From: Sedimentisphaerales bacterium
GTDB lineage: Bacteria; Planctomycetota; Phycisphaerae; Sedimentisphaerales; SM23-30
DNA length: 64,000 bases
Assembly: GCA_963666285.1 (NCBI GenBank)
Contig: OY762711.1
Reading direction: 5' to 3' (one strand)
Shown here in pieces: positions 6,234 through 41,089 of this stretch. Both the position numbers and the translations under genes were made by a program. Under the pieces are notes generated by a model. The model was not told where the DNA came from and searched no databases. It saw only the letters and a program-made list of their open reading frames with translations. The stretch's first letter is position 1; the number at the start of each line of letters is the position of its first letter.

Positions 6234-8705
6234 TTATTTATTTTTTTGCAGTAAATACCACATTGTTTCGTGTTTCGGGTCTAGCAGTATTTTATTCTTT
6301 TCTATTTTAACTTCTTCTCTTATGGTTCCATCTGGGTAAAGAGCGTAGCATTTCCAGTTTCTCAAATTTAATTCCTTAAATTCAAGATACCCTTTGACTG
6401 ATTCTATTTGAGCCGGGCCGCTGCCCCAGTTTTTCCCGACAGTGTTGCGGTTGTCAGAAAAAATCATATCAACATTTTCGCTTCTGCCGCAGGCAGTAAT
6501 TAAATACTTACTATTTCCGGTTAGAGGGTTGATGGATATTACAGCGGAACCGGGAGAGTCTATCTTAAATTTGAATGTTGAATTTTCTGACTCAGAAAGA
6601 CTTGCCATGTTCCCGGCATAAACTCCGCAGCTGCCGTCAGAAACTATATAAACTCCGTCGTGCCAGCTGTCCAGACCTTCCATTTCGCTTACTATGTCAG
6701 GCTTGAACAGGGCTTTCATATTGCGGTCATGCCGGGCATGAGTTTTGGCCAGGCTTTCAAGCATTGGTGATTCGTTTTGCTCCAACTCGAATTTCCTGGG
6801 TGTTTTGTATTCCTTCAGGGCAAAAGACCTGAAGGCAGAGGCTCCGAATCTTACAAAGCCCCATTTGGCAGGATTAGTGTCAACGTCAAAATAACTGTTG
6901 ATATAATTACGATCCCATTGCTCATTGCTATGTGAATAGGTATAGAGCCATACGCCGTTCCAGTCCTGTCGGGCGGCCCACGAAGCGATCATCGGCACGC
7001 ATTCAGCCTGGCTGTCCAGTGGTGCCGGGTGATTATATTCACTTACAGTATAAGGTTTACCGGCAAGTCTTTCAGATGAAAGTTCTGCCAAAGTCGAGCC
7101 TTGAGGAAAATCTGACATCGCCTGCTGCTGGATTATCCAGTTGCCGCTGTCCCATGGTTTGCCGGGGAAATTTGGGTGTTTCCAGTATGCATGGGAGTCA
7201 ATGTAATCCATATTACTTTGGGCCCATAATCCCAGCGGGCCAAATACTATCGTTCCGGTAACGTTAGCCCGGCAGCCGAGTTCTTCTTTTATATATTTAT
7301 ACATCCCGTCAAAATACGATTTTTCAGTTTCGGCATAAAACATCATTCTATCTACCGTTCTTGTCGGCGATTCAATGTCTTTATAAAGTTCAACTGACAT
7401 GTTTTCCAGAGACTCATTTTCTGACATTTTATATTCTACCCCGGGCTGCATTATAATATTTGCCAGGTAAAATTCTGTATCATCTTTTCCAAAGATAAAT
7501 CCTATCCGGGCGTTTTTGTCGTTTTGTTTAGCGATAAAGTTATACCTGTATAAATTCCAGCTTTTGTCCAGTTTTACTGTTTGAGCCAGTCCCAGGTTTT
7601 GCCAGTCGGCATGATTTTCCATCACGCTCAGACTAACTTCTCTTGGCTTTGCCGCAGCGGCATAAAAGCTTACGGTATAAGGTTTGCCGACCTCGATTTT
7701 TAAGTCTCTCTGATTGAATTGCAGGTGCCAGGAGATACCATCAATATTTTCCGGTTTTATCTCTATGCATTCCTTATCCTTCCAGGTAGTTGAACTGATC
7801 GTTGCCCTTGCCTGGTCATGCTGTTCCAGCATCCAGTTTTTTACCTGGTTGTTTTGTACGTTTGACAATTCTGAATTTAACAGTATGTTATTTTCAAGCG
7901 GAACGCTCTGGCTTAGCCACGCCTGCACTAGTTCATGGTCGCTGGTATATTTTGTTTTTAGCCAATGGTTATATTGATTCTGTAGTAATTTTGCATAATA
8001 CTCCGGCAGGTTTGGTAAAGTTGCGGCAGCAGACCACATAAACAGGCTGTTTTCATTGGTTATCTCAACAAAACCAATCGCATAGTCATCAGCATAGCGA
8101 ACGCCGCGATATTTGTTCTTATGCGTCAGCAGCGCCCTGGCATATCTTTTCTGCGCTTCGATGATTTCAGGGGTGAATATACTTATCATTTTATCATATC
8201 GCAGATCGTAGCTTTTGGGGGCCGCTATGTTAAGGTCTGTACTGTGTTCCTTGCCTACATGCAGGTTAATGTTTGAGTAAATTCCGCATTCGGCCAGCTG
8301 GTCGATAAAGTAATCAAGCCTGTCAAGAGCTTCCGGGTGAAATTTGGTTCCGCTGTTGTCCCATATCCCCCTTGGCCATTTCGCGGAGTCCATATGATGA
8401 AGACGGACAGAATTTATTCCGGCACCGGCAAGCCTTTTTGCCAGTCGTTCGGCGTCTGAGTGACTCGGAAAGCATGCCCCAAATGACATATTCACACCCC
8501 AGATTCGTATGGCTTTTCCTTCATTGCTAATAAAATCTTCTCCCTTGGCTGTTAGTCTGTCTGACTCATTTAAGGGCTGATAATCAAAAACGAGCTCAGA
8601 TTCGGGTGACTGATCAACCGGAATAACAAAAGGGGCGAAATCTTGTGCCGGGATAGCGGTGCCAAAAATCAGTATTGGCAGCATTGATATTATCAGTCTG
8701 TACAT
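6234..8705 (-). CDS. Secreted GH5-like (clan GH-A) glycoside hydrolase with inserted CBM4/9-like module
   Basis: Signal peptide; GINSVRLHH, EITNEN acid/base motif, VSEYNH nucleophile-like motif; central CBM-like WHLQFNQ...GKPYTVSF. Confidence 0.65.
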   Translation of the reverse strand: MYRLIISMLPILIFGTAIPAQDFAPFVIPVDQSPESELVFDYQPLNESDRLTAKGEDFISNEGKAIRIWGVNMSFGACFPSHSDAERLAKRLAGAGINSVRLHHMDSAKWPRGIWDNSGTKFHPEALDRLDYFIDQLAECGIYSNINLHVGKEHSTDLNIAAPKSYDLRYDKMISIFTPEIIEAQKRYARALLTHKNKYRGVRYADDYAIGFVEITNENSLFMWSAAATLPNLPEYYAKLLQNQYNHWLKTKYTSDHELVQAWLSQSVPLENNILLNSELSNVQNNQVKNWMLEQHDQARATISSTTWKDKECIEIKPENIDGISWHLQFNQRDLKIEVGKPYTVSFYAAAAKPREVSLSVMENHADWQNLGLAQTVKLDKSWNLYRYNFIAKQNDKNARIGFIFGKDDTEFYLANIIMQPGVEYKMSENESLENMSVELYKDIESPTRTVDRMMFYAETEKSYFDGMYKYIKEELGCRANVTGTIVFGPLGLWAQSNMDYIDSHAYWKHPNFPGKPWDSGNWIIQQQAMSDFPQGSTLAELSSERLAGKPYTVSEYNHPAPLDSQAECVPMIASWAARQDWNGVWLYTYSHSNEQWDRNYINSYFDVDTNPAKWGFVRFGASAFRSFALKEYKTPRKFELEQNESPMLESLAKTHARHDRNMKALFKPDIVSEMEGLDSWHDGVYIVSDGSCGVYAGNMASLSESENSTFKFKIDSPGSAVISINPLTGNSKYLITACGRSENVDMIFSDNRNTVGKNWGSGPAQIESVKGYLEFKELNLRNWKCYALYPDGTIREEVKIEKNKILLDPKHETMWYLLQKNK

Positions 8706-9009
8706 AATGGCCTCATTTAAGTTTGTAGAATATTATATGGATTATTATATATTTTGTAATCATACCCAATTATTTACCATTAATCATTATTATTATGGGA
8801 CCGTTGTTGTTTTTCCTTCTAAGTTCTCTTTAATTATTGTCGATATATATTATAGTATAAATAGGGTTGATGCCTTTTTGTCAAGGTTAACCCGTCGTTA
8901 GTGATTGCCTAATTGATGAAATAACGTATTCTGGGATGAGATAAACTTATATTTTCAGGTAGTTTAAATATTTGCAGTTTCTGGGTTGCTGACTAAATGA
9001 GGTATTGAT

Positions 9010-12000
9010 GTGAAAACCAAAACAGATCCGCAATTAATCCAGGAGAGACTTCGACTGGCACTGGAAGCTGTCAGTGATGGTATCTGGGACTGGGACCTGG
9101 AAACCGGGGAGGTTTACTGGAACCCGCTTAGTTATACAATGCTGGGCTATGAACCTGATGAATTTAAGGTGACATACGATAAATGGAAAGAGATGGTTCA
9201 CCCTGATGATATTTGTGGATGTGAAAATTCAGTTCAGGATGCTTTAACTTCAGGTGAAATATTCAAAATAGAATTTCGAATCAAATGTAAGGATGGATCG
9301 TGGAAATGGATGTTGGGTAGAGGAAGGTGTGTTTCAAGGGATAAAGATGGGAATCCGATTAGAATGGTTGGCACACATGTTGATCTGACTCAGCATAAAA
9401 AAGATGAAGTTGAATTGCATAAAAACGAGTCTGAATTAAAAGCTATTTACGAAAATGCGCCTCTGATTATGTTGTTAGTTGACCAGGATAGGCGTGTCTT
9501 AAAAATGAATGGTCAGGCTCTTGAGTTTTCGGGAAGGTCTTTACAGGAGAATGTTGAAATCCGTGGTGGTGAAGCTCTACGTTGTGTACACGCTTTTGAT
9601 GATGCTAATGGTTGCGGGTTTGGCCCGGAATGTAAAAATTGTGGTGTACGCAAATCTATCTTGGAAACGTTTGAGACTGGAAAGGCTATAAAATGTCGGG
9701 AAGCTGCTATTTCCAGTCAATCCGGTGAAGGCCGTAAAGATATAAATCTGCTCGTTTCTACAAAACCGCTTGAAGGGTTTGAAAAAAAAGTTGTCCTGGT
9801 TTGTATTGATGATATTACCGATCGGAAACAGACTGAAAATGAACTTAGAGCTGAAAAGGAATTTACCGAAGCTGCATTGGACAGTCAGGGTGATACTTTT
9901 TTCCTGTTCGATCCTGAATCCGGCAAACCTGTGAGATGGAATAAGGCTTTATGTGATGTTACCGGTTATACTGATAGTGAAATAGCTCAGTTGATTTGCC
10001 CTTATTCGTATTTCAAAAAAGAAGATTTTGAGAAGGTAATTAATTTTATCCGGCATGTTATTGAGAACGGCAGCGGAACTATTGAATTGGACCTTGTCTG
10101 TAAAGATGGCCATTCTATTCCATTTGAGTATGGTGTTTCTGCTGTTAAAGATTCTTGTGGACGGTCTGAGTATCTGATTGCAATTGGACGAGATATAACT
10201 AAAAGAAAAGCTACTGAAAAACAACTCTTGGAAAGTGAAAGTGTTTTATCAGCTTCTTTCAGCAGTATCCAGGATGGAATAGTTATATTGGACAATAATT
10301 TTGATATTATCCGCATCAATCCTGTTATAGAGAAATGGTGTGATGGTGCTGATCGTGTTGTTGGCGCCAAGTGTTACAGCTGTTTTAGAGATTCACCTGA
10401 ACCTTGTGATTTCTGCCCGACACGTAAAGCTTTGGAATCCGGTAATGCTGAATTTAAAGTGTTAAAAGGTTTTCCAGGATCAGGAGTCGAGTGGCTCGAA
10501 GTATATAGTTATCCCATCAAATCTGTTGATACCGGAGAAATAACAGGTGTTATAGAATTTCTACGTGACATTTCCGATCGTAAACGTTCTGAAGAGGCTT
10601 TACTGGAAAGCGAAAATAAACTTCGTGAAGCACAGCAGATGGCACAGCTTGGACACTGGCACTGGGATGTTAGTACCGGTGAAGTTGAGTGGTCTGAATG
10701 GGTTTATAAAATTTTTGGTCTGAATCCTGATGAGTTTACTCCTACTATAGATTCGGTTATGGCAATGTCGCCCTGGCCGGAAGATCATCAGCGGGATAAA
10801 GAATTGATTCAAAAAGCAATAGAAAGTCACGAGAAAGGTGAGTATGAACAGAAGTTTTTACGGTTAGACGGCAGCCTGGGTTACTACTATTCAACTTTCC
10901 AGGGCGTTTACGATCAAAATGATCAGCTTGTTGCCATCAAGGGAACTGTTCAGGATATTACCGAGCGAAAGCTGGTTGAACAGGAACTGTTGCGGGAGCG
11001 TGACAGGCTTGAAATGGCCCAGGAAGCTGCCGGGTTTGGCATGTTCGATTGGGATCTTATCAATAACAAGACTGTTTGCAGCGACAGATATTTCCAGCTT
11101 TTCGGACTGGAGCCGCAGGATAAAATGATTACCAGGGAAGATTGGCTTAATCTGGTTCACCCCGAAGATAGAGAGCGTGTTAGCCGGGAAGTCAGGCATT
11201 TTTTGGAAAATGGTGATGTTTATGATACTGAATATCGTGTGGTCTGGCCGGATGGCTCTGTGAAATGGTTAAACAGTAAATCCAGGGTATTTAGTGATGA
11301 ATGCGGCAAGCCTTATCGAATGATTGGAATAATGTCAGATATAACAGAACGCAAACAGGCCGAAGAAGTAGTCAAGACATATAATTCCCGCCTGAAAAAT
11401 GAAGTGAAAGAACGCACCGAAGAGCTTCAGGAGAAAAACATTCTGCTTGAAAATGAGATTAGCGAGCGTATTAAGGCTGAAAAAGAACTTAAAACTGCTG
11501 TTTCACAATTAATCCAGGCTGAAAAGCTCGCTACTGTCGGCCAGCTGGCCGCCGGTGTTGCTCATGAGATAAATACTCCGCTTGGCGCTATTGGCTCCTC
11601 CAATACCACAATTCAACAGCAATTTGAGAGCATCCTGGACAATATTGACCAGGAATTCGAAATTCTAAAGGATAATGCCAACCTGATTAACCAGGTAATC
11701 AATCGAATTACCAGTTCCAGCATAGATCTTAACTCTCGACAGGCCCGGCAAATGAAAACCATTTTGACTGAGAGGTTAACCGGACTTAATGTTAAGCATC
11801 CTGAGGTAACCGCTTCTTTACTGGTTTCTATAGGGCTTGTTGAAAATTACGAGTCATATTTACCTTTGTTTGAAAAGGAAAACAGTACCCAGATTATAGA
11901 CTTTGTTCGAAAAATCTCTAATATCATCAGCGGAAGTAAAATTATTGATACTGCGGTAAAACAATCTTCACGGGTTGTTTATGCCTTGCGAGATTATGCC

Positions 12001-14275: not shown

Positions 14276-14314
14276 AACGCCGGGCTGGTATTAAGTTATC
14301 ACCCGGCGTTTTTT
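14276..14314. terminator. Hairpin between convergent genes (likely terminator)
   Basis: AACGCCGGG...CCCGGCGTT followed by T run on the + strand. Confidence 0.6.
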
Positions 14315-14960
14315 ATTTTCCACCTGATTTGGTTATGTCTTCTGTTACCAGTACTTCATAAGTTGTCGCCATGAAATATTGCCTCCAGTTTTCAGTATTG
14401 GTAAACGGCAGGGGTGCTCTGGACCAATTAATAGGTATAAGTTTCTTGCCGAAAACGGTCTGCATCAGGTATCCGCCCCTTTTATCCAGGATAATGTCGC
14501 CTAGCAGCTGTTCGCTTTGATCGTAAACCAGGTAGCTGCACCAGGCGGGAAGCTTTATATTAAATGGACCTTTGACTATCCAGCCGATCAAGGCAGCGTT
14601 CCAGTAGAAAAATGCCTTGGGTGATGATTTTATCTGGACAATCTCAAAGCTGTCTTTGCCTATGTTGCCGATAATATAAAATGCTCTGCGCAGCCAGAAA
14701 TGCCCCATACTTTTGCCGGAGACCAGCCCGACAAATTCCCTTTGACTTTCTTCTTCGTTTTGCCAAAAATTCTTATCATCATATTTCATGAAAATCTGAC
14801 CTGCAATGCAATCCAGGTTTTCATGCCATTGCAAATATCTGTCTTCCTCCAGTTCCCTGATCGTATATTTTGCCCGGTATTCAAGATATCTTTCACGCGC
14901 AGCTTCTATCTGCTCTTTTTCTTTCGTCTTGATATTTTCAATTGTTTCAAGATCAATCAA
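14313..14960 (-). CDS. Hypothetical protein
   Basis: 215 aa ORF overlapping the upstream gene by 8 nt (translational coupling). Confidence 0.6.
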   Translation of the reverse strand: MIDLETIENIKTKEKEQIEAARERYLEYRAKYTIRELEEDRYLQWHENLDCIAGQIFMKYDDKNFWQNEEESQREFVGLVSGKSMGHFWLRRAFYIIGNIGKDSFEIVQIKSSPKAFFYWNAALIGWIVKGPFNIKLPAWCSYLVYDQSEQLLGDIILDKRGGYLMQTVFGKKLIPINWSRAPLPFTNTENWRQYFMATTYEVLVTEDITKSGGK

Positions 14961-16047
14961 TTTTTTCTTCTTCCTTATCAGTATTATATTTCTTTACATA
15001 CCTTTCTGCATATTCCTTGATTGAGCCAACCGGGTCACTCTTTAACAGCAGAAGCAATTCCATATCTTCTGAAAGTTCGTAATCGTTATTGTCAGAATCA
15101 GTATGGGTGGCGAAAATGGTCTTCATTTTATCTTTCGGTCTGACCTCTTCTGGCAAAAAGTTGAATTCTTTCTGGATCTTCTCAACTGTGTTTTTCCAGT
15201 CAAAATGTGATTTGTTATTTATTTCAGGTGAGATTATATAGAGATATGGCATCGCGATAATTTCATAACCTTGCTCTTTTCTTACCAGGAACGGTCCTTC
15301 GAATCGCATTTTACTGTTCTGCTGCTCTGTTTTAGCTGTTTTAATATCGTTCAGGCAATCATCACAAAGACCTAGTCCCTTATTGCTCCGGCCAAACAGC
15401 TTATAGATAGGCGTTAAATACACATCAACACTGGCTTTCATCAGGCAATTATTATTGCAATGGCTGCCGTCTCCGTGTTCGGTATTTGTTGCCAGGCCGA
15501 GTATATGGCCCAGTTCATGTCGAATAAAATGCAGCTGGGCGACTTTGTTATGTTTGACATAGGATGTATTAAAAAATGCTGTCGTCGCCGTATTGCCGTA
15601 AACATAAGGATTTTTTATATTCGCCTTAATGTCTTTTTGCCTGTCATAAAAGAAGCAGTGTATATATGCACAATCGCCTTCGGTAGCTCTCGGCCCGTCA
15701 GTGTACAGCAATGAGATCAGCTCCACCGGCATATCCTTCTGGTTCGGTTTCAGCCTTATCGGATCATCCTTTACTATCGTTATGGTCTCCTTTTCGCAAT
15801 GCTGACCCAGGAAATCACTGATCGTTTTCAAATAGAGTTCCGGCACTTCCGTATCTTCCAGGCTGTCAACTTCTACATAAATTTTAGAATATGGCTCTTG
15901 CTGCAGGTATAGTTGGTATGGATGATACTCCAGCGCATCTGCAAGCTTGTAATCATTGTTATCCGGCTTACCGCAGCCGGAAAGATATAACGCCAGAATT
16001 ATTATCAACAGAGTTGCTGGAATTATTTTTTTTCGTAATATTATCAT
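14953..16047 (-). CDS. Lipoprotein zinc metallopeptidase (metzincin-like)
   Basis: Lipobox LSGC; HELGHILGL...H..HCNNNCLM zinc motif with Met-turn-like CLM. Confidence 0.7.
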   Translation of the reverse strand: MIILRKKIIPATLLIIILALYLSGCGKPDNNDYKLADALEYHPYQLYLQQEPYSKIYVEVDSLEDTEVPELYLKTISDFLGQHCEKETITIVKDDPIRLKPNQKDMPVELISLLYTDGPRATEGDCAYIHCFFYDRQKDIKANIKNPYVYGNTATTAFFNTSYVKHNKVAQLHFIRHELGHILGLATNTEHGDGSHCNNNCLMKASVDVYLTPIYKLFGRSNKGLGLCDDCLNDIKTAKTEQQNSKMRFEGPFLVRKEQGYEIIAMPYLYIISPEINNKSHFDWKNTVEKIQKEFNFLPEEVRPKDKMKTIFATHTDSDNNDYELSEDMELLLLLKSDPVGSIKEYAERYVKKYNTDKEEEKID

Positions 16048-16148: not shown

Positions 16149-19100
16149 TTACTTCCGTTTCTTGTTTGACTTCGTTGATGTAGGATTGTCACGAGCCTCT
16201 ATAGCCTCAAGCAACCTAAGTTCTTCGGCATAGAGCTTCTCCAGGAACTCATTCCAATCATCCATGTCAATATCAGCCATCATGTCAGGGTATTCAACAG
16301 GAATCTTTTCTAACCAATCAATAATGTCTGCTATTCTATATAGTTGAGCCTCCAATGGAAGTTCTGCGGCTTCAGCAGGGTCAATATATACAGTGTTTGC
16401 ATATTCATCAGCATAAGGGTTTTCTGCTTCCAGCATTACTGGTTCCAGCATGAAGCTTGTCATTGTTGACATTACAGACATTGGCGTGGCATCATACCAG
16501 CAAGCACTCCATAGCCAGATGCTAGTAAAATCGCTTAAGTCGTCAATATCAACAGTATTGTCATCATCCATATCCCAGGTATCATACCAGTTTGGATCAG
16601 AGGAAGTTAACAACCATGTTTCAGCAAGCCCACCAAATTCATGCTGATTGATAATTCCGTCAGCATTTATGTCATATTCATGTGAAATACCATCACTGCA
16701 ATAGACATACTCATCTGCACCCATGTCAACCGTGAGGCTAATACCACCATTAACAATACGTGTTTCACCGTCAATATCAGTTTCATCGATGCCAACACCT
16801 GTATTGTAACCTAGATCAATACAAGTTGAATTAGAACTTAGATGGAAATCTAAATAAACATTTGGATCGCCGTAAGCAAAATCAGGATAGCAATGAATAT
16901 TATTATAAGTAGAATCCGGCGTACTGCTTGAAGTGTTCGGATCTTGAACGCAGCTGTATGTTACATCACAACCTGATGGAAGCTGGATAATCTCACCATT
17001 ACCCCATAAAATTGAATTTGTAATTGTCGGAGCATTACTGCCAGAATATGATACGCCATACCTTTTATTATATGCAATTGTATTGTTACGGAATACGGCA
17101 ACAGAGGATGGACTATTCAGGTTTACACCATGATAATAACCGCTGGAACCATTTTTGTATATCATGCAGTTGGTAACTGTAGGTGTAGAATTTTCACAAT
17201 ATACTCCGTCTTTTTGATTACCAAATATTTTACTACTCTTGATTGTTAGTGAATTACTTGAACCTGTGTGAGAAATACCATGCTCGCCACTATTTTTAAC
17301 AACACAAGAATCTACTATTACATCGCTATCTGCAAAATCAATACCGTGTGTACCACTATTACTTATTACAGTGTTAGCAATAGTGCAATCAGCACTATCG
17401 CCACTAATACCACTTTCAACTGAGTTTTTCACAACAAAACCATCCAAGACAGTATCATCCTGCAATACAACAAGATTGTTATTGATGGCATTTCCTTTTA
17501 GTGTCGAATAATATTTCCCCCAGTTTCTATCGGTACGATATTCTTCATTACCAATGAAACCACCATAAACTTCTATATCATAAGGTATTTCAAATTTATC
17601 ATTGGCACTTTCCCCAGGAGAATAGTTGCCATGAGCAACCCAGATTTCTGAACCACATTCTATCCCCAAAGCTCTGGCATTGTTGATACGGTCAATTGCC
17701 ATTGAAAGCTTCGTATAAGCCGTTTCCCAGCTGGTACCAGTCTCGAAGTAATTATTAGGATCAAGAGTGGCATTAACATATATTACTCCCGGAGCTGAAT
17801 CAATATCTGCCCAGCAGCATACAGGATTAGTTTCTGATGTTTCTGCCCAAGACGTGTCAGATTCTATCCAAACATAATTCACTACATCTGATACTGGGTC
17901 AGCTTGCGGATTAAGCATAACTGTAAGGCTAAAAACTGTACTTGTTTCACTTGGCTCTAAGGTACCAATTTCCCATGTAACTGTATTATTCATAAAATCA
18001 AATACAGCAGTATTTGGATCGGCAGACACAAATGTTAATTCGTCTGGTAAATAGTCAATTACAACTACATTAGTATGGCTTTCTTCTACTGCACGAAAAT
18101 CAATCTCATATTCAATTTCATCGCCGGGAGTTATGCATGTATCAAAATCCAGCATTTCTTTTGTGATATGCAGGTCGCTTTCACCAAGTGCGCAGTTCAT
18201 CAATACTGGCTCTGCACGAAAAGTATTAGTTCCATCTCCTAATTGGCCTGAGCCATTATCTTCCCAACTCCAAACATTACCGTAAATATCTATTGCCAAA
18301 ACATGTTTATAACCAGCTTCGATAGCTGCGATATTTTCCAGATATCCACTTGATGTCTCCATTTCGCCGTCAGTTACTAAACTGGGTGATCCACCTGTAT
18401 CCCATTCCCATACATATCCGGAACTGTCCAAACCTAAACAATAATCTGAACCAACTCGAACATCTACAATATTTTCCAGATAACCGGAAGTAGTCTCCAT
18501 GTCTCCATCAGTTACAAGTGAGGGGGTACCACACGCTTCTTCCCAACTCCAAACCATACCGCTTGAGTCAAGTGCGGCGGTATAATCACAGCTTGAGATA
18601 GCTATAATCTCAGTATTATTTGGGTCTGGAAAACCTATCTTTTTGGCATATTCGGTACCATCACCCCATTCCCATACATCACCCGCCTGGTCAAGTGCAG
18701 TTGAATGGTGAATACCTGCCTGCACATCAATAATTGGGCTGGCACTTCCAAGCTTCACAGCAGGATCATCGTCTGTATATATATAATGAGGTAATTCTAC
18801 ATAGCCTAGCCCATTGATTTGCGAACCACACTGGTAAGAAGCATTTAGTCCCCATGCAAAAACATGGCCTGCACTATCTGCGGCCAATGAATGTTGTCCG
18901 CTGCGACCAGCAGAGATTGATACTATATTGCTTAGTACTGTATTTGGGTCAGTATTTTGCTCACCAGAAAGAACGATTTGCGGTGTGTTGAATTGAATCC
19001 CTAAATCTCGTCCTATCCCCAATCTTCCATCATCGTTACTGCCCCATGCATAAACATAACCATCTGAGTTGGAGGCAAGCGAATGCATCCACCCAGCATC

Positions 19101-19382
19101 AAACAGTGCTACATTTTCTAAATATCCTGTTTCTGTTTCCGCTTTCCCATCAACAACTCGATCAAGATTAAGAAAATTCCCTCCATAATTTGAACCGTTA
19201 CCTAATTGGTAGAAACTATTTCCCCCGCAAGCCCATAATGTAGCATTATCCATTAATACTAACGTATGATCTTCTCCTCCAGACACCTCTACAGCTTCTA
19301 TGCAGTTCAAGGTAGCGAAAGACATATTAACAAACAAAACTGAAAATATAAATGCGCGCAGTATCTCTATTATATTTTTCAT
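16149..19382 (-). CDS. Large secreted protein: RCC1-like propeller + DUF11-like domain + right-handed beta-helix + dockerin-like EF-hand pair
   Basis: Signal peptide; RCC1 repeats (AGWMHSLA..DGYVYAWGSNDDGRLG); DUF11-like DLHITK...PGDEIEYEI...TNVVVIDYLP; parallel beta-helix (NNTIAYN, TNSILWGN, DMGADE); DINADG/DMDDDN EF-hand-like pair. Confidence 0.75.
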   Translation of the reverse strand: MKNIIEILRAFIFSVLFVNMSFATLNCIEAVEVSGGEDHTLVLMDNATLWACGGNSFYQLGNGSNYGGNFLNLDRVVDGKAETETGYLENVALFDAGWMHSLASNSDGYVYAWGSNDDGRLGIGRDLGIQFNTPQIVLSGEQNTDPNTVLSNIVSISAGRSGQHSLAADSAGHVFAWGLNASYQCGSQINGLGYVELPHYIYTDDDPAVKLGSASPIIDVQAGIHHSTALDQAGDVWEWGDGTEYAKKIGFPDPNNTEIIAISSCDYTAALDSSGMVWSWEEACGTPSLVTDGDMETTSGYLENIVDVRVGSDYCLGLDSSGYVWEWDTGGSPSLVTDGEMETSSGYLENIAAIEAGYKHVLAIDIYGNVWSWEDNGSGQLGDGTNTFRAEPVLMNCALGESDLHITKEMLDFDTCITPGDEIEYEIDFRAVEESHTNVVVIDYLPDELTFVSADPNTAVFDFMNNTVTWEIGTLEPSETSTVFSLTVMLNPQADPVSDVVNYVWIESDTSWAETSETNPVCCWADIDSAPGVIYVNATLDPNNYFETGTSWETAYTKLSMAIDRINNARALGIECGSEIWVAHGNYSPGESANDKFEIPYDIEVYGGFIGNEEYRTDRNWGKYYSTLKGNAINNNLVVLQDDTVLDGFVVKNSVESGISGDSADCTIANTVISNSGTHGIDFADSDVIVDSCVVKNSGEHGISHTGSSNSLTIKSSKIFGNQKDGVYCENSTPTVTNCMIYKNGSSGYYHGVNLNSPSSVAVFRNNTIAYNKRYGVSYSGSNAPTITNSILWGNGEIIQLPSGCDVTYSCVQDPNTSSSTPDSTYNNIHCYPDFAYGDPNVYLDFHLSSNSTCIDLGYNTGVGIDETDIDGETRIVNGGISLTVDMGADEYVYCSDGISHEYDINADGIINQHEFGGLAETWLLTSSDPNWYDTWDMDDDNTVDIDDLSDFTSIWLWSACWYDATPMSVMSTMTSFMLEPVMLEAENPYADEYANTVYIDPAEAAELPLEAQLYRIADIIDWLEKIPVEYPDMMADIDMDDWNEFLEKLYAEELRLLEAIEARDNPTSTKSNKKRK

Positions 19383-19405: not shown

Positions 19406-20047
19406 TTATCTTTTTCTTCTTTTAATAATCCCGATGGTTCCAATTACTACCATTGATACAATAGAAGGTTCTGGTACTACTGTTGTTTTTGTTACCACTC
19501 CTCCAAAATTGAAATCAACTAATTCATTTGAATAATCTTTTCCTTGAACAAATAAATAATTTGATGCATACTCTTCAATAGTAGCTGGTCGTAATTCTAA
19601 ACTATCATTTACTGAATCATTGAAAATGCATTGAAAAACTAATACGGGCGATAATACTTGACTATTAATATTATTACTTTTACTTTTTATATAATAGTCT
19701 CCTTTATCTGAATTTGATATTGATATCGAATAGTCAACATCATTCGGATTTGTTTGAATTATAAGTGATTCATCGGTATTGTTGGGGTTAACTATTTCCA
19801 GATACATTCCACTTTGACCAGAATAATAATAGTACCCTTTTGCATTTGTGCTTTCATAGAGACTATCAGGTATGGTTTCGTAGGTATAATACCCCGAATA
19901 AGTCGCACCAACTGTTAGGTATGATGGCAATAAATCAGAAGAAGACCCAACACTATCAATAACTCCTTCAAATTCAACCTTAACAAGTGACGCACTAAGA
20001 TTTCCAACAATACATAAAAAACCGATAAAAAATGTTATCTTTTTCAT
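19406..20047 (-). CDS. PEP-CTERM protein (array copy 4)
   Basis: Signal peptide; C-terminal VPEPS + TM + KRRKR. Confidence 0.85.
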   Translation of the reverse strand: MKKITFFIGFLCIVGNLSASLVKVEFEGVIDSVGSSSDLLPSYLTVGATYSGYYTYETIPDSLYESTNAKGYYYYSGQSGMYLEIVNPNNTDESLIIQTNPNDVDYSISISNSDKGDYYIKSKSNNINSQVLSPVLVFQCIFNDSVNDSLELRPATIEEYASNYLFVQGKDYSNELVDFNFGGVVTKTTVVPEPSIVSMVVIGTIGIIKRRKR

Positions 20048-20066
20048 AATATAATTCCTTTTAAAA

Positions 20067-20720
20067 TTATCTTTTTCTTCTTTTAATTATCCCTATTGCA
20101 CCACAACCAAACAATGTTAACGATAGAGGTTCAGGAACAACGTCCACAGAAGATATTTCTACAAAAATATTAAAATCAGGCGCTTCGTTACTCTGATAAT
20201 CTTTGCCAATAATAGTTAATACATTTGAACTGTAATCGTCTAATGAAACTGGCCTTAACCCTAAACTTGTGTTTCCAGAGATTAAATTGCTTAAACGCCA
20301 ATTGAAGTCAACAATGGGGGCAAGAGAAGCATCATTTGATATATTATTCTCACTTGTAATAATATACCCGCCTTCATAAATTGTATCGTTTTCAATAAAT
20401 ATCGAAACTGATACATTTGTTGGATCAGTTTGAAATATTAAAGACTCATTATCATTATTGGGATTTTTAATTTCAACATACAAAGAACTTGGCAATGAAT
20501 CAAATTGGTACTCCTTTGCATCACCATAATCTATAAAAGAAAAATCGTTAGTATCATATTGATAGTACCCTTCAATAACTGAGCCGTTTGTAACATAATC
20601 CGGTAAAGCTCCTTCAAAACCAGAGCCAGTTATAACTCCTTCAAATTCAACCTTAACAAGTGACGCACTAAGATTTCCAACAATACATAAAAAACCGATA
20701 AAAAATGTTATCTTTTTCAT
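20067..20720 (-). CDS. PEP-CTERM protein (array copy 3); true start is ATG at 20720
   Basis: AAGGA RBS before MKKITFF; C-terminal VPEPLSLTLFGCGAIGIIKRRKR. Confidence 0.85.
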   Translation of the reverse strand: MKKITFFIGFLCIVGNLSASLVKVEFEGVITGSGFEGALPDYVTNGSVIEGYYQYDTNDFSFIDYGDAKEYQFDSLPSSLYVEIKNPNNDNESLIFQTDPTNVSVSIFIENDTIYEGGYIITSENNISNDASLAPIVDFNWRLSNLISGNTSLGLRPVSLDDYSSNVLTIIGKDYQSNEAPDFNIFVEISSVDVVPEPLSLTLFGCGAIGIIKRRKR

Positions 20721-20739
20721 AATATAATTCCTTTTAAAA

Positions 20740-21387
20740 TTATCTTTTTCTGCTTTTGATAATCCCGATGGTTCCAATTACTACCATTGATATAATAGAA
20801 GGTTCTGGCACAACTGTTGTTTTTGTTACCACTCCTCCAAAATTGAAATCAACCAATTCATTATTGTAATCTTTTGCATCAATAAAAATATACCCCATTT
20901 CATACTCATCTAATAAAGCTGGTCGTAAACCAAAGCTACTATTATCTGAATTATAAAATGACAAATCAAAAACAACAACAGGTGATAATAAATCATTATT
21001 ACTGGCAATATTGTTACTTCTAATAACATATTGTCCTCCATCAACATTTGATATCGTTATAGAGTAACCCTCATCCGCTGTAGTTGACTGAAATGAAAGG
21101 TAATCATTTGAGTTATTGGGATTAATTATTTCCACATAAATAGCACTTGGTTCGTAATTGTAGTTATAGGTAATTCCATTGCTGTACGTAACAATATTAT
21201 CAGGATTGATGTCATTGTCATAGACATAATACCCGGTATAAGTCGCACCAACTGTTAGGTATGATGGCAATAAATCAGAAGAAGAACCAACACTATCAAT
21301 AACTCCTTCAAATTCAACCTTAACAAGTGACGCACTAAGATTTCCAACAATACATAAAAAACCGATAAAAAATGTTATCTTTTTCAT
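20740..21387 (-). CDS. PEP-CTERM protein (array copy 2)
   Basis: Same N-terminus as copies 3 and 4; VPEPSIISMVVIGTIGIIKSRKR. Confidence 0.85.
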   Translation of the reverse strand: MKKITFFIGFLCIVGNLSASLVKVEFEGVIDSVGSSSDLLPSYLTVGATYTGYYVYDNDINPDNIVTYSNGITYNYNYEPSAIYVEIINPNNSNDYLSFQSTTADEGYSITISNVDGGQYVIRSNNIASNNDLLSPVVVFDLSFYNSDNSSFGLRPALLDEYEMGYIFIDAKDYNNELVDFNFGGVVTKTTVVPEPSIISMVVIGTIGIIKSRKR

Positions 21388-21406
21388 AATATAATTCCTT
21401 TTAAAA

Positions 21407-22036
21407 TTATCTTTTTCTTCTTTTAATTATCCCGATGGTTCCAATTACTACCATTGATATAATAGAAGGTTCTGGCACAATACTAGTAATATTTGCTGAA
21501 ATTTGAAAATATGATGAATACTCTTTACCGTAAAGATAAAGATTGTTTCCTTGATAGTTTTCTAAATCAGGAATAAACAGTTCTGTATTGTCTGCTGGTT
21601 CTATAGCACTCCATAGTTTCAAACTGAAATCAAATAGTGTAGGTAATGAAAAATCGTCACAGGCCCACGTATTACTGCCAGCTGTAAAAGTTCCAGATGG
21701 ACCAATTATTATCCTGAAATCTACATTTGAAGGGTCACTTTCAATTAAAACATAATCATTTTCATCGTTTGGATTAATGAATTTAACTGCCATACCATAT
21801 GGAGCACTATCATACTGGTAAATTGCGTTATTAGTATTAGGGTTTATTATTGGAGAAACATCAGAATCATATACATAACACCCTTCTATTATAGCCCCCT
21901 CGGCAACATAGTCTGGAAAAGGAGAATTTAGGTCATTGATGTGAGTGATCTCAGCTTCAAACTCAACTGTAATAATTCCGGCATTCACAAAACTTGTTAA
22001 AATCAAAATATTTAGAAGTAAAAATATCCTTTTCAT
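21407..22036 (-). CDS. PEP-CTERM protein (array copy 1)
   Basis: Signal peptide; VPEPSIISMVVIGTIGIIKRRKR. Confidence 0.85.
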   Translation of the reverse strand: MKRIFLLLNILILTSFVNAGIITVEFEAEITHINDLNSPFPDYVAEGAIIEGCYVYDSDVSPIINPNTNNAIYQYDSAPYGMAVKFINPNDENDYVLIESDPSNVDFRIIIGPSGTFTAGSNTWACDDFSLPTLFDFSLKLWSAIEPADNTELFIPDLENYQGNNLYLYGKEYSSYFQISANITSIVPEPSIISMVVIGTIGIIKRRKR

Positions 22037-39840: not shown

Positions 39841-39889
39841 ATCTGACTGCGTATATTTTTAATAAGTGCTTGCCAGAAAGGAATTTAGA

Positions 39890-41089
39890 ATGAAAAATAT
39901 AGTTTCAGCTGCCTTCTCGCTTTTACTTCTTCCCGTTATAGTAAATGCTCAGATTTATTACTGGAATACTTCTCAGGTAATACCCGGCACTGAAAACATT
40001 ACTCCCGGTCCGGGAACGAATCTTTCCGGGTGGAATGGTTATGGTAACAGCAGTCTTGATTATGCCGACCTTTCCGGCGGATTGGATTTAACCGGAAGTG
40101 ATTTCTCTTCCAGCAGTATGAACTTTTCCCGGATGTCGAACGCGAACTTAACTGACAGCCGGTTTGTTATGACTAATATGGCTAACGCCGATTTAAGCAA
40201 TACGAATCTCAGCGAAAGTAATTTCTTCGATGCCTATATGGTTGATTCAGATCTTAGCTATGCCAATTTGTTTTATACAGATTTTATGGATGCCGATTTG
40301 ACAAATGCTGACCTGTCTTATACCGGCCAGAACGGCACCCGGTTCTCCCAGGCAGATCTTTCTAACGCGATTTTTGATAATGCCGTTATAAATGGCGCCA
40401 AATTTGAAAATGCAGTAAATTTTACCAGTCAGCAGCTGTATTCTACCGCCAGCTATATTAGCAGCAACCTGTCAGAAACTATTTTTAATAATTATAATAT
40501 CTCCGGTTGGGATATGTCCGAGCAGAATCTGACTTATGCCGGATTCTTCTTTTCCAATACCACCGATACCGACTTTAGCAGGGCCGACATGCGAAAAGCT
40601 GATTTCGATCAGTATATGTATTCCGCTATTATCGATGACACTATCCTTCCCGACGGTCATATCAACGGACTGGAACTTGGTTCCGGCCAGTCTTTGCCGG
40701 TTCGCGATTTCGACGGCAATCTTGCCATTACTGTCGATAATAAAATGATTCTTTTTTCCGGAAGTGATATAGAGTTTATTTTTGAAGATGATACCTGGGG
40801 TTCCAAGATCACCCTTTCTGAGAATCTGCCGGTTATCCTTGATGGATCAATTACGCTTGCTTTTGCCCCCGGAACTGATATCAAGTCTTTGGTCGGAACG
40901 ACATTCGACATTTTCGATTGGAACGGCCAGCTCAGTATAAATGATGCCTTTAACGAGATAATCTCTGACTACATCTGGAATACTGACAATCTTTATTCCA
41001 CAGGTGAAGTTACACTTGTCGCTGTTCCCGAACCGGCAGCTGTTCTGTTCTTACTGGCCGGTTTGGGTTTGGTTAAAAAAAGACTGTAA
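39890..41089 (+). CDS. Pentapeptide-repeat PEP-CTERM protein
   Basis: AAGGA RBS before ATG 39890; signal peptide; ADLS/ANLT pentapeptide repeats; VPEPAAVLFLLAGLGLVKKRL. Confidence 0.88.
   Translation: MKNIVSAAFSLLLLPVIVNAQIYYWNTSQVIPGTENITPGPGTNLSGWNGYGNSSLDYADLSGGLDLTGSDFSSSSMNFSRMSNANLTDSRFVMTNMANADLSNTNLSESNFFDAYMVDSDLSYANLFYTDFMDADLTNADLSYTGQNGTRFSQADLSNAIFDNAVINGAKFENAVNFTSQQLYSTASYISSNLSETIFNNYNISGWDMSEQNLTYAGFFFSNTTDTDFSRADMRKADFDQYMYSAIIDDTILPDGHINGLELGSGQSLPVRDFDGNLAITVDNKMILFSGSDIEFIFEDDTWGSKITLSENLPVILDGSITLAFAPGTDIKSLVGTTFDIFDWNGQLSINDAFNEIISDYIWNTDNLYSTGEVTLVAVPEPAAVLFLLAGLGLVKKRL

Follow-up and report, generated by a model that had tools for sequence, protein, structure and literature searches.

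A tandem array of four paralogous PEP-CTERM genes (g1 to g4, positions 19406-22036) occupies the minus strand of the window, the 64,000-nt stretch of contig OY762711.1 analysed here, from a Sedimentisphaerales bacterium of the phylum Planctomycetota (GCA_963666285.1). The genes encode predicted beta-barrels whose junction DNA is near-identical, beside old, divergent cores in which hypervariability is limited to one sheet face, and they adjoin a gene for a 1077-aa protein tipped by an RCC1 beta-propeller. We give an even chance to the reading that the array is a surface receptor repertoire for partner variants, with junctions kept by homologous recombination and a variable face that would read the RCC1 tip. 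A sequence-only reading of the same DNA had proposed recombination-driven surface variation; that interpretation is supported in part, and it had overlooked the adjacent RCC1/beta-helix gene, which is now the predicted partner.

In many environmental bacteria, the genes for PEP-CTERM proteins belong to the fastest-changing sets, and to our knowledge most of these proteins are without a known ligand. The locus offers a mechanism for this turnover in the form of junction recombination, as well as a testable partner, the barrel face against the RCC1 tip.

Layout of the array

The four open reading frames (ORFs) run head-to-tail in the transcription order g1, g2, g3 and g4, and each encodes a PEP-CTERM barrel: g1 at 21407-22036 (209 aa), g2 at 20740-21387 (215 aa), g3 at 20067-20720 (217 aa) and g4 at 19406-20047 (213 aa). 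Their TIGR02595 scores of 20.7, 18.3, 15.4 and 19.8 bits place g1, g2 and g4 above the cut-off of 16 bits and g3, which also matches PF07589 (E 8.5e-4), just below it. The same 19 nt, carrying the ribosome-binding site (RBS), form all three spacers (3/3), and all four proteins end in GIIKxRKR; the ORFs and spacers first described for the array were confirmed in these respects. By inspection, the N-terminal signal peptide has a basic start, a hydrophobic stretch and a small-residue cleavage site near residue 19, and the region is a helix (2-15) in the g3 structure model. Like exosortase substrates, the array proteins combine a signal peptide, a PEP motif, a transmembrane segment and a basic tail, in a genome with two exosortases (PF09721 matches above cut-off) and about 100 PEP-CTERM genes (104 matches, 101 at E<1e-4). 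By this likeness they are likely surface-anchored, and known biology suggests that they would be exported by the signal peptide and attached to the surface via exosortase.

The large gene (16149-19382, minus strand, 1077 aa) starts 23 nt downstream of g4, and its product is likely exported. With spacers of 19-23 nt and no terminator-like site inside the array, g1-g4 and the large gene probably form one operon, whose products would be the four barrels of the cell surface together with a single exported stalk protein. A promoter scan came out near chance (41 vs 33.6±5.3), Rfam gave no match in the window, and the GC content is 31-32% in the array against 41% in the genome.

Near-identical junctions beside old cores

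An exact 120-nt block is present at all three junctions (J12, 21299-21418; J23, 20632-20751; J34, 19959-20078; all minus strand) and comprises the last codons and stop of one gene, the RBS-bearing spacer and the first 89 nt of the next gene. The tract common to J12 and J23 extends from -93 to +88 relative to the ATG, and that common to J12 and J34 from -46 to about +161. Genes g2 and g4 are near-identical over ~54 N-terminal and ~37 C-terminal codons (C-terminal tract about -113 to 0 from the stop), g1 has a unique 5' end and ~24 3' codons homogenised with g2/g4, and the g3 tracts are shorter, with codons 1-30 and a sorting signal homogenised over the last ~9 codons only. The DNA identity of the first 30 codons, at first ascribed to copies 2-4, is complete between g2 and g4, whereas g3 is off by one synonymous base (89/90 nt). 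The outer edges of the array, at the g1 start and in the spacer after g4, are unique, and the junctions differ from one another at scattered bases.

Synonymous divergence (dS) is 0-0.13 in the junction tracts and between 0.95 and saturation in the cores (alignment columns 56-177). Because near-identical junctions beside cores with dS of at least 0.95 cannot both be explained by a single duplication, the original objection to simple old duplication withstood the dN/dS check. Nonsynonymous divergence (dN) of the cores, at 0.45-0.85, is below their dS, which indicates age rather than uniformly fast evolution. They are divergent, as had been supposed, but they are also homologous over their full length (34-66% amino acid identity), with the hypervariability on one face. 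In a test with 2000 codon permutations of polymorphic sites, the longest common run over such sites reached p<=0.001 in 5/6 gene pairs (g1/g3, p=0.37), in agreement with the proposed recombination at the signal-peptide/sorting-signal junctions.

Tract ends that change from pair to pair, together with unique outer edges, form the pattern of gene conversion or unequal crossover. Such exchange very probably takes place between the constrained tail-RBS-signal-peptide blocks and is probably driven by RecA (recA is present in the genome); it would homogenise the ends and make the gain, loss or exchange of whole cores possible. Homogenised ends around old resident cores and imported cores fit the data equally.

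Constant ends and variable middles are also features of programmed antigenic variation, in which a dedicated recombinase, a diversity-generating retroelement (DGR) or silent donors rewrite an expressed gene, and the genome holds 20 tyrosine recombinase (PF00589), 2 serine recombinase (PF00239) and 4 reverse transcriptase (RT) matches. All of these lie outside the window, as the sequence-only reading had stated for recombinases and RT. Shufflons and integrons have a linked recombinase and fixed crossover sites, whereas the tract ends here vary; DGRs have a linked RT and adenine-specific variation, whereas 46/133 of the g2/g4 core differences are without A and core indels are present. Silent cassettes of the pilE/pilS type consist of one expression site and silent donors. 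Here, four intact ORFs each have an RBS and no donor copy of the array cores was found elsewhere in the genome, and the suggested likeness to antigen cassettes was dropped. Programmed antigenic variation is largely refuted and very improbable, and the junction DNA is likely kept alike by ordinary homologous recombination rather than by a dedicated recombinase, a DGR or exchange with silent donors.

The variable face and its predicted partner

The structure model of g3 is a soluble beta-barrel (pLDDT 91, 86 alignment rows). Its closest folds are generic beta-barrels (PagL, Z 9.9, rmsd 4.3, 135 aligned; Cap15, Z 9.0, rmsd 2.5, 101 aligned); such fold likeness says nothing on function. Foldseek returned no barrel match at E<=0.001. 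Pfam lacks a family specific to the core, and no NCBIfam subfamily matches it above the cut-off: 43/86 family members match PEP-CTERM only in Pfam, apart from two stray single matches, and Atlas matches and cluster look-ups gave 'hypothetical' only. In a collection of 1.84 billion representatives, a core-only profile matched 137 proteins (E<=0.001), and the PEP-CTERM pattern is present in 76/138 core-family proteins, the rest including different tails. In G089 and G418 the barrel matches lie in long proteins.

The 1077-aa protein consists of a signal peptide, an RCC1 beta-propeller (about 24-402), a DUF11 domain, a right-handed beta-helix, a dockerin-like part and acidic helices. A complex was modelled from three chains, with alignments made for this analysis, namely the g4 barrel, the RCC1 domain and the C-terminal part of the large protein. 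It scored 0.77, against 0.20 for the best of 3 controls; runs agreed in at least 92% of contacts, and partner pLDDT was at least 87. All contacts listed in the complex join the barrel to the RCC1 chain. The score supports, but does not prove, binding of the g4 barrel face to the RCC1 propeller of its neighbour, and the predicted capture of the RCC1 tip by g4, which is likely the cognate copy, is rather more probable than its absence.

Cohesin-dockerin anchoring, in which a dockerin-bearing protein is held by a cohesin-bearing anchor, resembles this arrangement in that a dockerin-like C-terminal part (Atlas first match 0.90, a lead only) occurs beside small surface-anchored proteins. In contrast, the best folds of the small protein are beta-barrels, with no cohesin fold among the best 50 structure matches, and the predicted contacts are with the RCC1 domain; none was listed between the g4 barrel and the dockerin-like chain.

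The barrel residues in the predicted contact lie at alternating positions of a single sheet. Across 78 rows, entropy at the 18 face positions is 3.32-3.86 bits, compared with 1.19-3.29 bits at 17 outward-facing positions of the other strands (p=5e-7). A comparison of 12 pairs of paralogues, drawn from four genomes, shows nonsynonymous differences (pN) at the face (0.50-0.73) that are near the synonymous value (pS, 0.54-0.90) and exceed those in the rest of the core (0.16-0.36); of 16 face residues, just 1-5 agree within a pair. Hypervariability is thereby limited to one sheet face of the barrel. A focus on loops was considered and rejected: loops (86/213 identical) are not more divergent than strands (90/259). 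On the partner side, the RCC1 contact positions of five G020 paralogues are identical at 11-18/25, against 82-94% elsewhere, and the barrels paired with them share 28-49% identity with each other.

Pairing of barrel and RCC1 genes across genomes

The barrel-to-RCC1 order is kept in six genomes from three families, the array genome (G000) included. An RCC1 gene or fragment is immediately preceded by a barrel gene in 7/7 cases in G020, 2/3 in G047, 2/3 in G391, 2/4 in G338 and also in G548. In G020 each barrel has its own RCC1 gene, and five pairs are intact and could be used for a direct specificity matrix. The RCC1 domain of the large gene was found in 13/301 genomes, and in an unselected count of the genomes found through the barrel an RCC1 gene adjoins it in 4/19 others. 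The pairing is recurrent, not obligate.

The large gene itself has 17 homologues in G000 (one a 378-aa fragment), which differ in their N-terminal domains. All (17/17) have a PEP-CTERM neighbour, 16/17 within 100 nt, and a large-gene homologue is near 11/14 PEP-CTERM clusters as compared to 5/55 singletons. Among relatives, the pairing of a large-gene homologue with PEP-CTERM genes holds in 19/20 loci examined. Six of the homologues are on three related contigs of ~65 kb (G000:C2, C3 and C4), each with large-gene/PEP-CTERM modules, and C3 encodes a terminase, a portal, a major head protein, an integrase and a 5491-aa ORF. No phage genes such as those of C3 are beside the window copy. In five other genomes (L084, L085, L089, L090 and L052), a different PEP-CTERM family is directly upstream of an RCC1-tipped large gene and is a candidate alternative receptor.

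Several observations weigh against the array as a repertoire that reads RCC1 tips. No RCC1 gene is beside the barrel in 15/19 barrel genomes (several of these loci end at contig edges), only 3/12 other RCC1 genomes have a barrel upstream, and in 8/12 the domain is next to other PEP-CTERM families and in 1/12 to none seen. Barrels are also found with other anchors and within multi-domain fusions. The complex was modelled for g4 only among the four barrels. In calibration, the score mark was reached by 116/157 solved pairs and 2/215 mismatched pairs, counts that are only roughly applicable to this job, which with three chains and purpose-made alignments is unlike the calibration pairs; since solved RCC1-type propeller complexes exist (4jhp, 4qam, 1jtd), likeness to these may account for part of the score. 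Positions for face and control were picked by the modelled interface and by strand alternation, with no measure of solvent accessibility, and with face pN near saturation, relaxed constraint would look similar to omega>1. Gain, loss or swap of cores is unobserved in the one strain available, because no second strain was found. A tandem pair in G016 and most G020 pairs do not have homogenised ends.

A serious rival is concerted evolution with no partner function, in which redundant surface or matrix proteins would have constrained, converting ends and drifted cores, with a face that is unconstrained or pushed by phages or predators. The many barrels without RCC1 genes are in line with it, as are the core dN below dS overall, the loops that diverge no more than strands and the quick duplication and loss of PEP-CTERM genes described in the available portion of PMC1569441. 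However, variability is found on one face rather than at all outward positions, this face is predicted to contact RCC1 loops that vary just as much, and the barrel-to-RCC1 gene order is conserved in six genomes of three families, with one RCC1 gene per barrel in G020. Concerted evolution of this kind keeps an appreciable minority share of the probability.

The large protein could also be an effector whose RCC1 tip attacks rivals, with the barrels as surface immunity proteins or decoys and g1-g3 as orphans. The layout resembles tipC strings, in which homology blocks at both the 5' and the 3' end accompany a sheet face that varies (PMC9484751, as far as its available text goes), orphan large-gene fragments occur between PEP-CTERM genes at other loci, and the propeller is similar to the inhibitor BLIP-II (1jtd). 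However, no toxin family was found in the 1077-aa protein by Pfam, NCBIfam or PADLOC, nor by Pfam in 8 large-gene homologues, although the fold search, filled by RCC1 matches, barely reached other domains; moreover, the variable part is N-terminal, the partner gene is upstream and RCC1-tipped genes also occur without barrels. A toxin-immunity locus is unlikely, and since no toxin family was found, allele-specific capture or adhesion is favoured over it.

The orphan fragments are at L010:6782-7918, L037:4974-5600, L045:4881-5444, L049:3575-4006, L029:6046-7197 and 8604-9122, and L064:7698-8024 and 9473-9805. They are C-terminal if the array is downstream and N-terminal (RCC1) if it is upstream, and are similar to Rhs-type orphan modules.

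Under the receptor-repertoire reading, g1-g3 would be extra specificities for the partner alleles of other strains or lysogens, serving allele-specific adhesion or kin discrimination. They would widen the range of tips caught, in a role likened to that of spare genes in immunity strings; this assignment is plausible at somewhat below even chance. A broader and more doubtful proposal is a polymorphic lock-and-key recognition system of planctomycetes, in which stalk proteins with swappable tips (RCC1 and others) would be read by allele by PEP-CTERM barrels, with repertoires arising through junction recombination and spread partly by temperate phages. If it were true, PEP-CTERM proteins would have a defined protein as their ligand and would take part in kin discrimination, cheating or antagonism; if binding were allele-specific, the barrels and tips would make up a self/non-self surface code, partly phage-carried, in a little-studied phylum.

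Comparison with known systems

The mode of recombination is itself already known; the parallels given here follow the available portions of the papers cited. In the tipC/esaG immunity strings of type VII secretion systems (T7SS), tandem non-identical paralogues have homology blocks at gene start, gene end and spacer and recombine with one another, and the most divergent part of TipC is a beta-sheet face implicated in partner binding (PMC9484751). The array is alike in its tandem paralogues, its 5' and 3'/spacer blocks and its recombination signal, as well as in divergence focused on a partner-binding face, although binding by the face is only predicted here. This favours the likeness to immunity-gene arrays first suggested from the sequence. 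Unlike tipC/esaG, the array proteins carry PEP-CTERM, and their predicted partner is an RCC1-tipped beta-helix protein without a recognisable toxin domain. By analogy, the locus works like an immunity-gene string, without being shown to be one.

Tandem surface-protein genes of Staphylococcus aureus (lpl) have common blocks that permit recombination between neighbours (summarised in PMC9484751); in lpl the block sits mid-gene, whereas the array blocks lie across the junctions and the array has a predicted partner gene paired with it. A variable middle between homologous ends is also found in babA/B/C of Helicobacter pylori (PMC4552749) and in the DoMo system of type I restriction-modification specificity genes (PMC3077401), where it is exchanged, between loci as well, by gene conversion or repeat-mediated recombination. 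The bab genes encode outer-membrane adhesins at separate loci and DoMo concerns DNA-binding domains, and strain-level variation has been shown in both. Rapid duplication and loss is the behaviour reported for PEP-CTERM/exosortase genes in PMC1569441, the available portion of which mentions neither recombination nor a paired partner. A literature search, with subscription journals mostly outside its coverage, turned up neither a paper on PEP-CTERM arrays that recombine nor one on a PEP-CTERM/RCC1 pair.

Signs of recombination at other loci

Homogenised ends recur elsewhere in the barrel family. G338 has its own array of four tandem barrels, in which some pairs have 50-nt windows of 94-100% identity at the 5' or the 3' end, against mostly 40-85% in the stretches between. 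Genes b and g of G020 have 5' windows of 95-97% and cores of ~45%, and the ends are homogenised in two G003 pairs and not in another.

A second PEP-CTERM family in G000 comprises 12 units in three chromosomal arrays up to 4 Mb apart (G000:C1:1261193-1263168, L008; 1513424-1516755, L007; 5486400-5489769, L006). Its units are segmental patchworks with exact tracts of 341, 277, 260, 231 and 189 nt, several of them between arrays, and nearest neighbours shift along the gene. This exchange across three loci is like that of bab and DoMo. Two copies are frameshifted in G-runs, either by slipped-strand switching or by assembly error.

Dispersed PEP-CTERM genes in G000 have constant ends between loci as well: the gene at G000:C1:937450-938097 and those at 2148154, 3316171 and 3317984 have 5' leaders and 3' ends that are 91-99% identical and cores that are 30-36% identical over partial alignments. 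A dispersed repeat of ~100 bp is found near G000:C1 998376, 1264496, 2111475, 4092685 and 5058170, as well as C2 32863 and 43916, C3 41247 and 56610, and C4 60100. Several copies lie immediately downstream of PEP-CTERM genes or close to integrases, and the repeat is possibly a miniature inverted-repeat transposable element (MITE), a terminator or an attachment-like site.

Strains, contigs and read depth

The array was found in its own genome only. A DNA search of 40 relatives gave a single 37-nt match, a protein search returned only the copies of the array's own genome, a search of metagenome and viral contigs with the junction pattern gave 0 matches, and no synteny block was found with three same-genus genomes. 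Two runs (X1 and X2) from one sample, possibly the source of the assembly, contain each core and flank with 0 differences, on separate contigs that break exactly at the repeats; a third run (X3) was too patchy for use.

No listed contig spans the array or bridges the junction repeats, which leaves room for repeats that are an assembly artefact. However, the cores and flanks match in both runs, the contig of the 120-nt repeat has ~3x the core depth (52.6 vs ~18 and 85.6 vs ~28), the junctions are not uniform copies and G338 shows the same design. The check for an artefact proposed with the sequence-only reading gave no sign of one, and its probability is negligible.

Depth in X1 is 17.8-18.3 over the g2, g3 and g4 cores against 25.3 and 29.2 in the flanks, while X2 is flat (26.8-29.5). 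Such a dip would fit loss of g2-g4 in some cells. In the X1 control region there is no AT-dependent drop, but neighbouring unique contigs range over 12-42x (X1/X2 ratio 0.75-1.09), and given this scatter the dip, no larger than control noise, was not counted; no joint within the array is listed. Another locus, L012:11477-19611 (G000:C1:219477-227611), has segments beside insertion sequence (IS) copies along which the contig depth of both runs drops from ~35 through 25 to 13; the last low-depth segment, with a methyltransferase-like ORF, is possibly absent from part of the population.

Other genes in the window

Downstream of the large gene, two more minus-strand genes lie at 14313-16047. The first is a 364-aa lipoprotein-like ORF with an HExxH zincin motif (weak M54/M12 matches below cut-off), and the second is a 215-aa ORF without a family match. 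A further PEP-CTERM gene of 399-407 aa, unrelated to the array, is located at 39866-41089.

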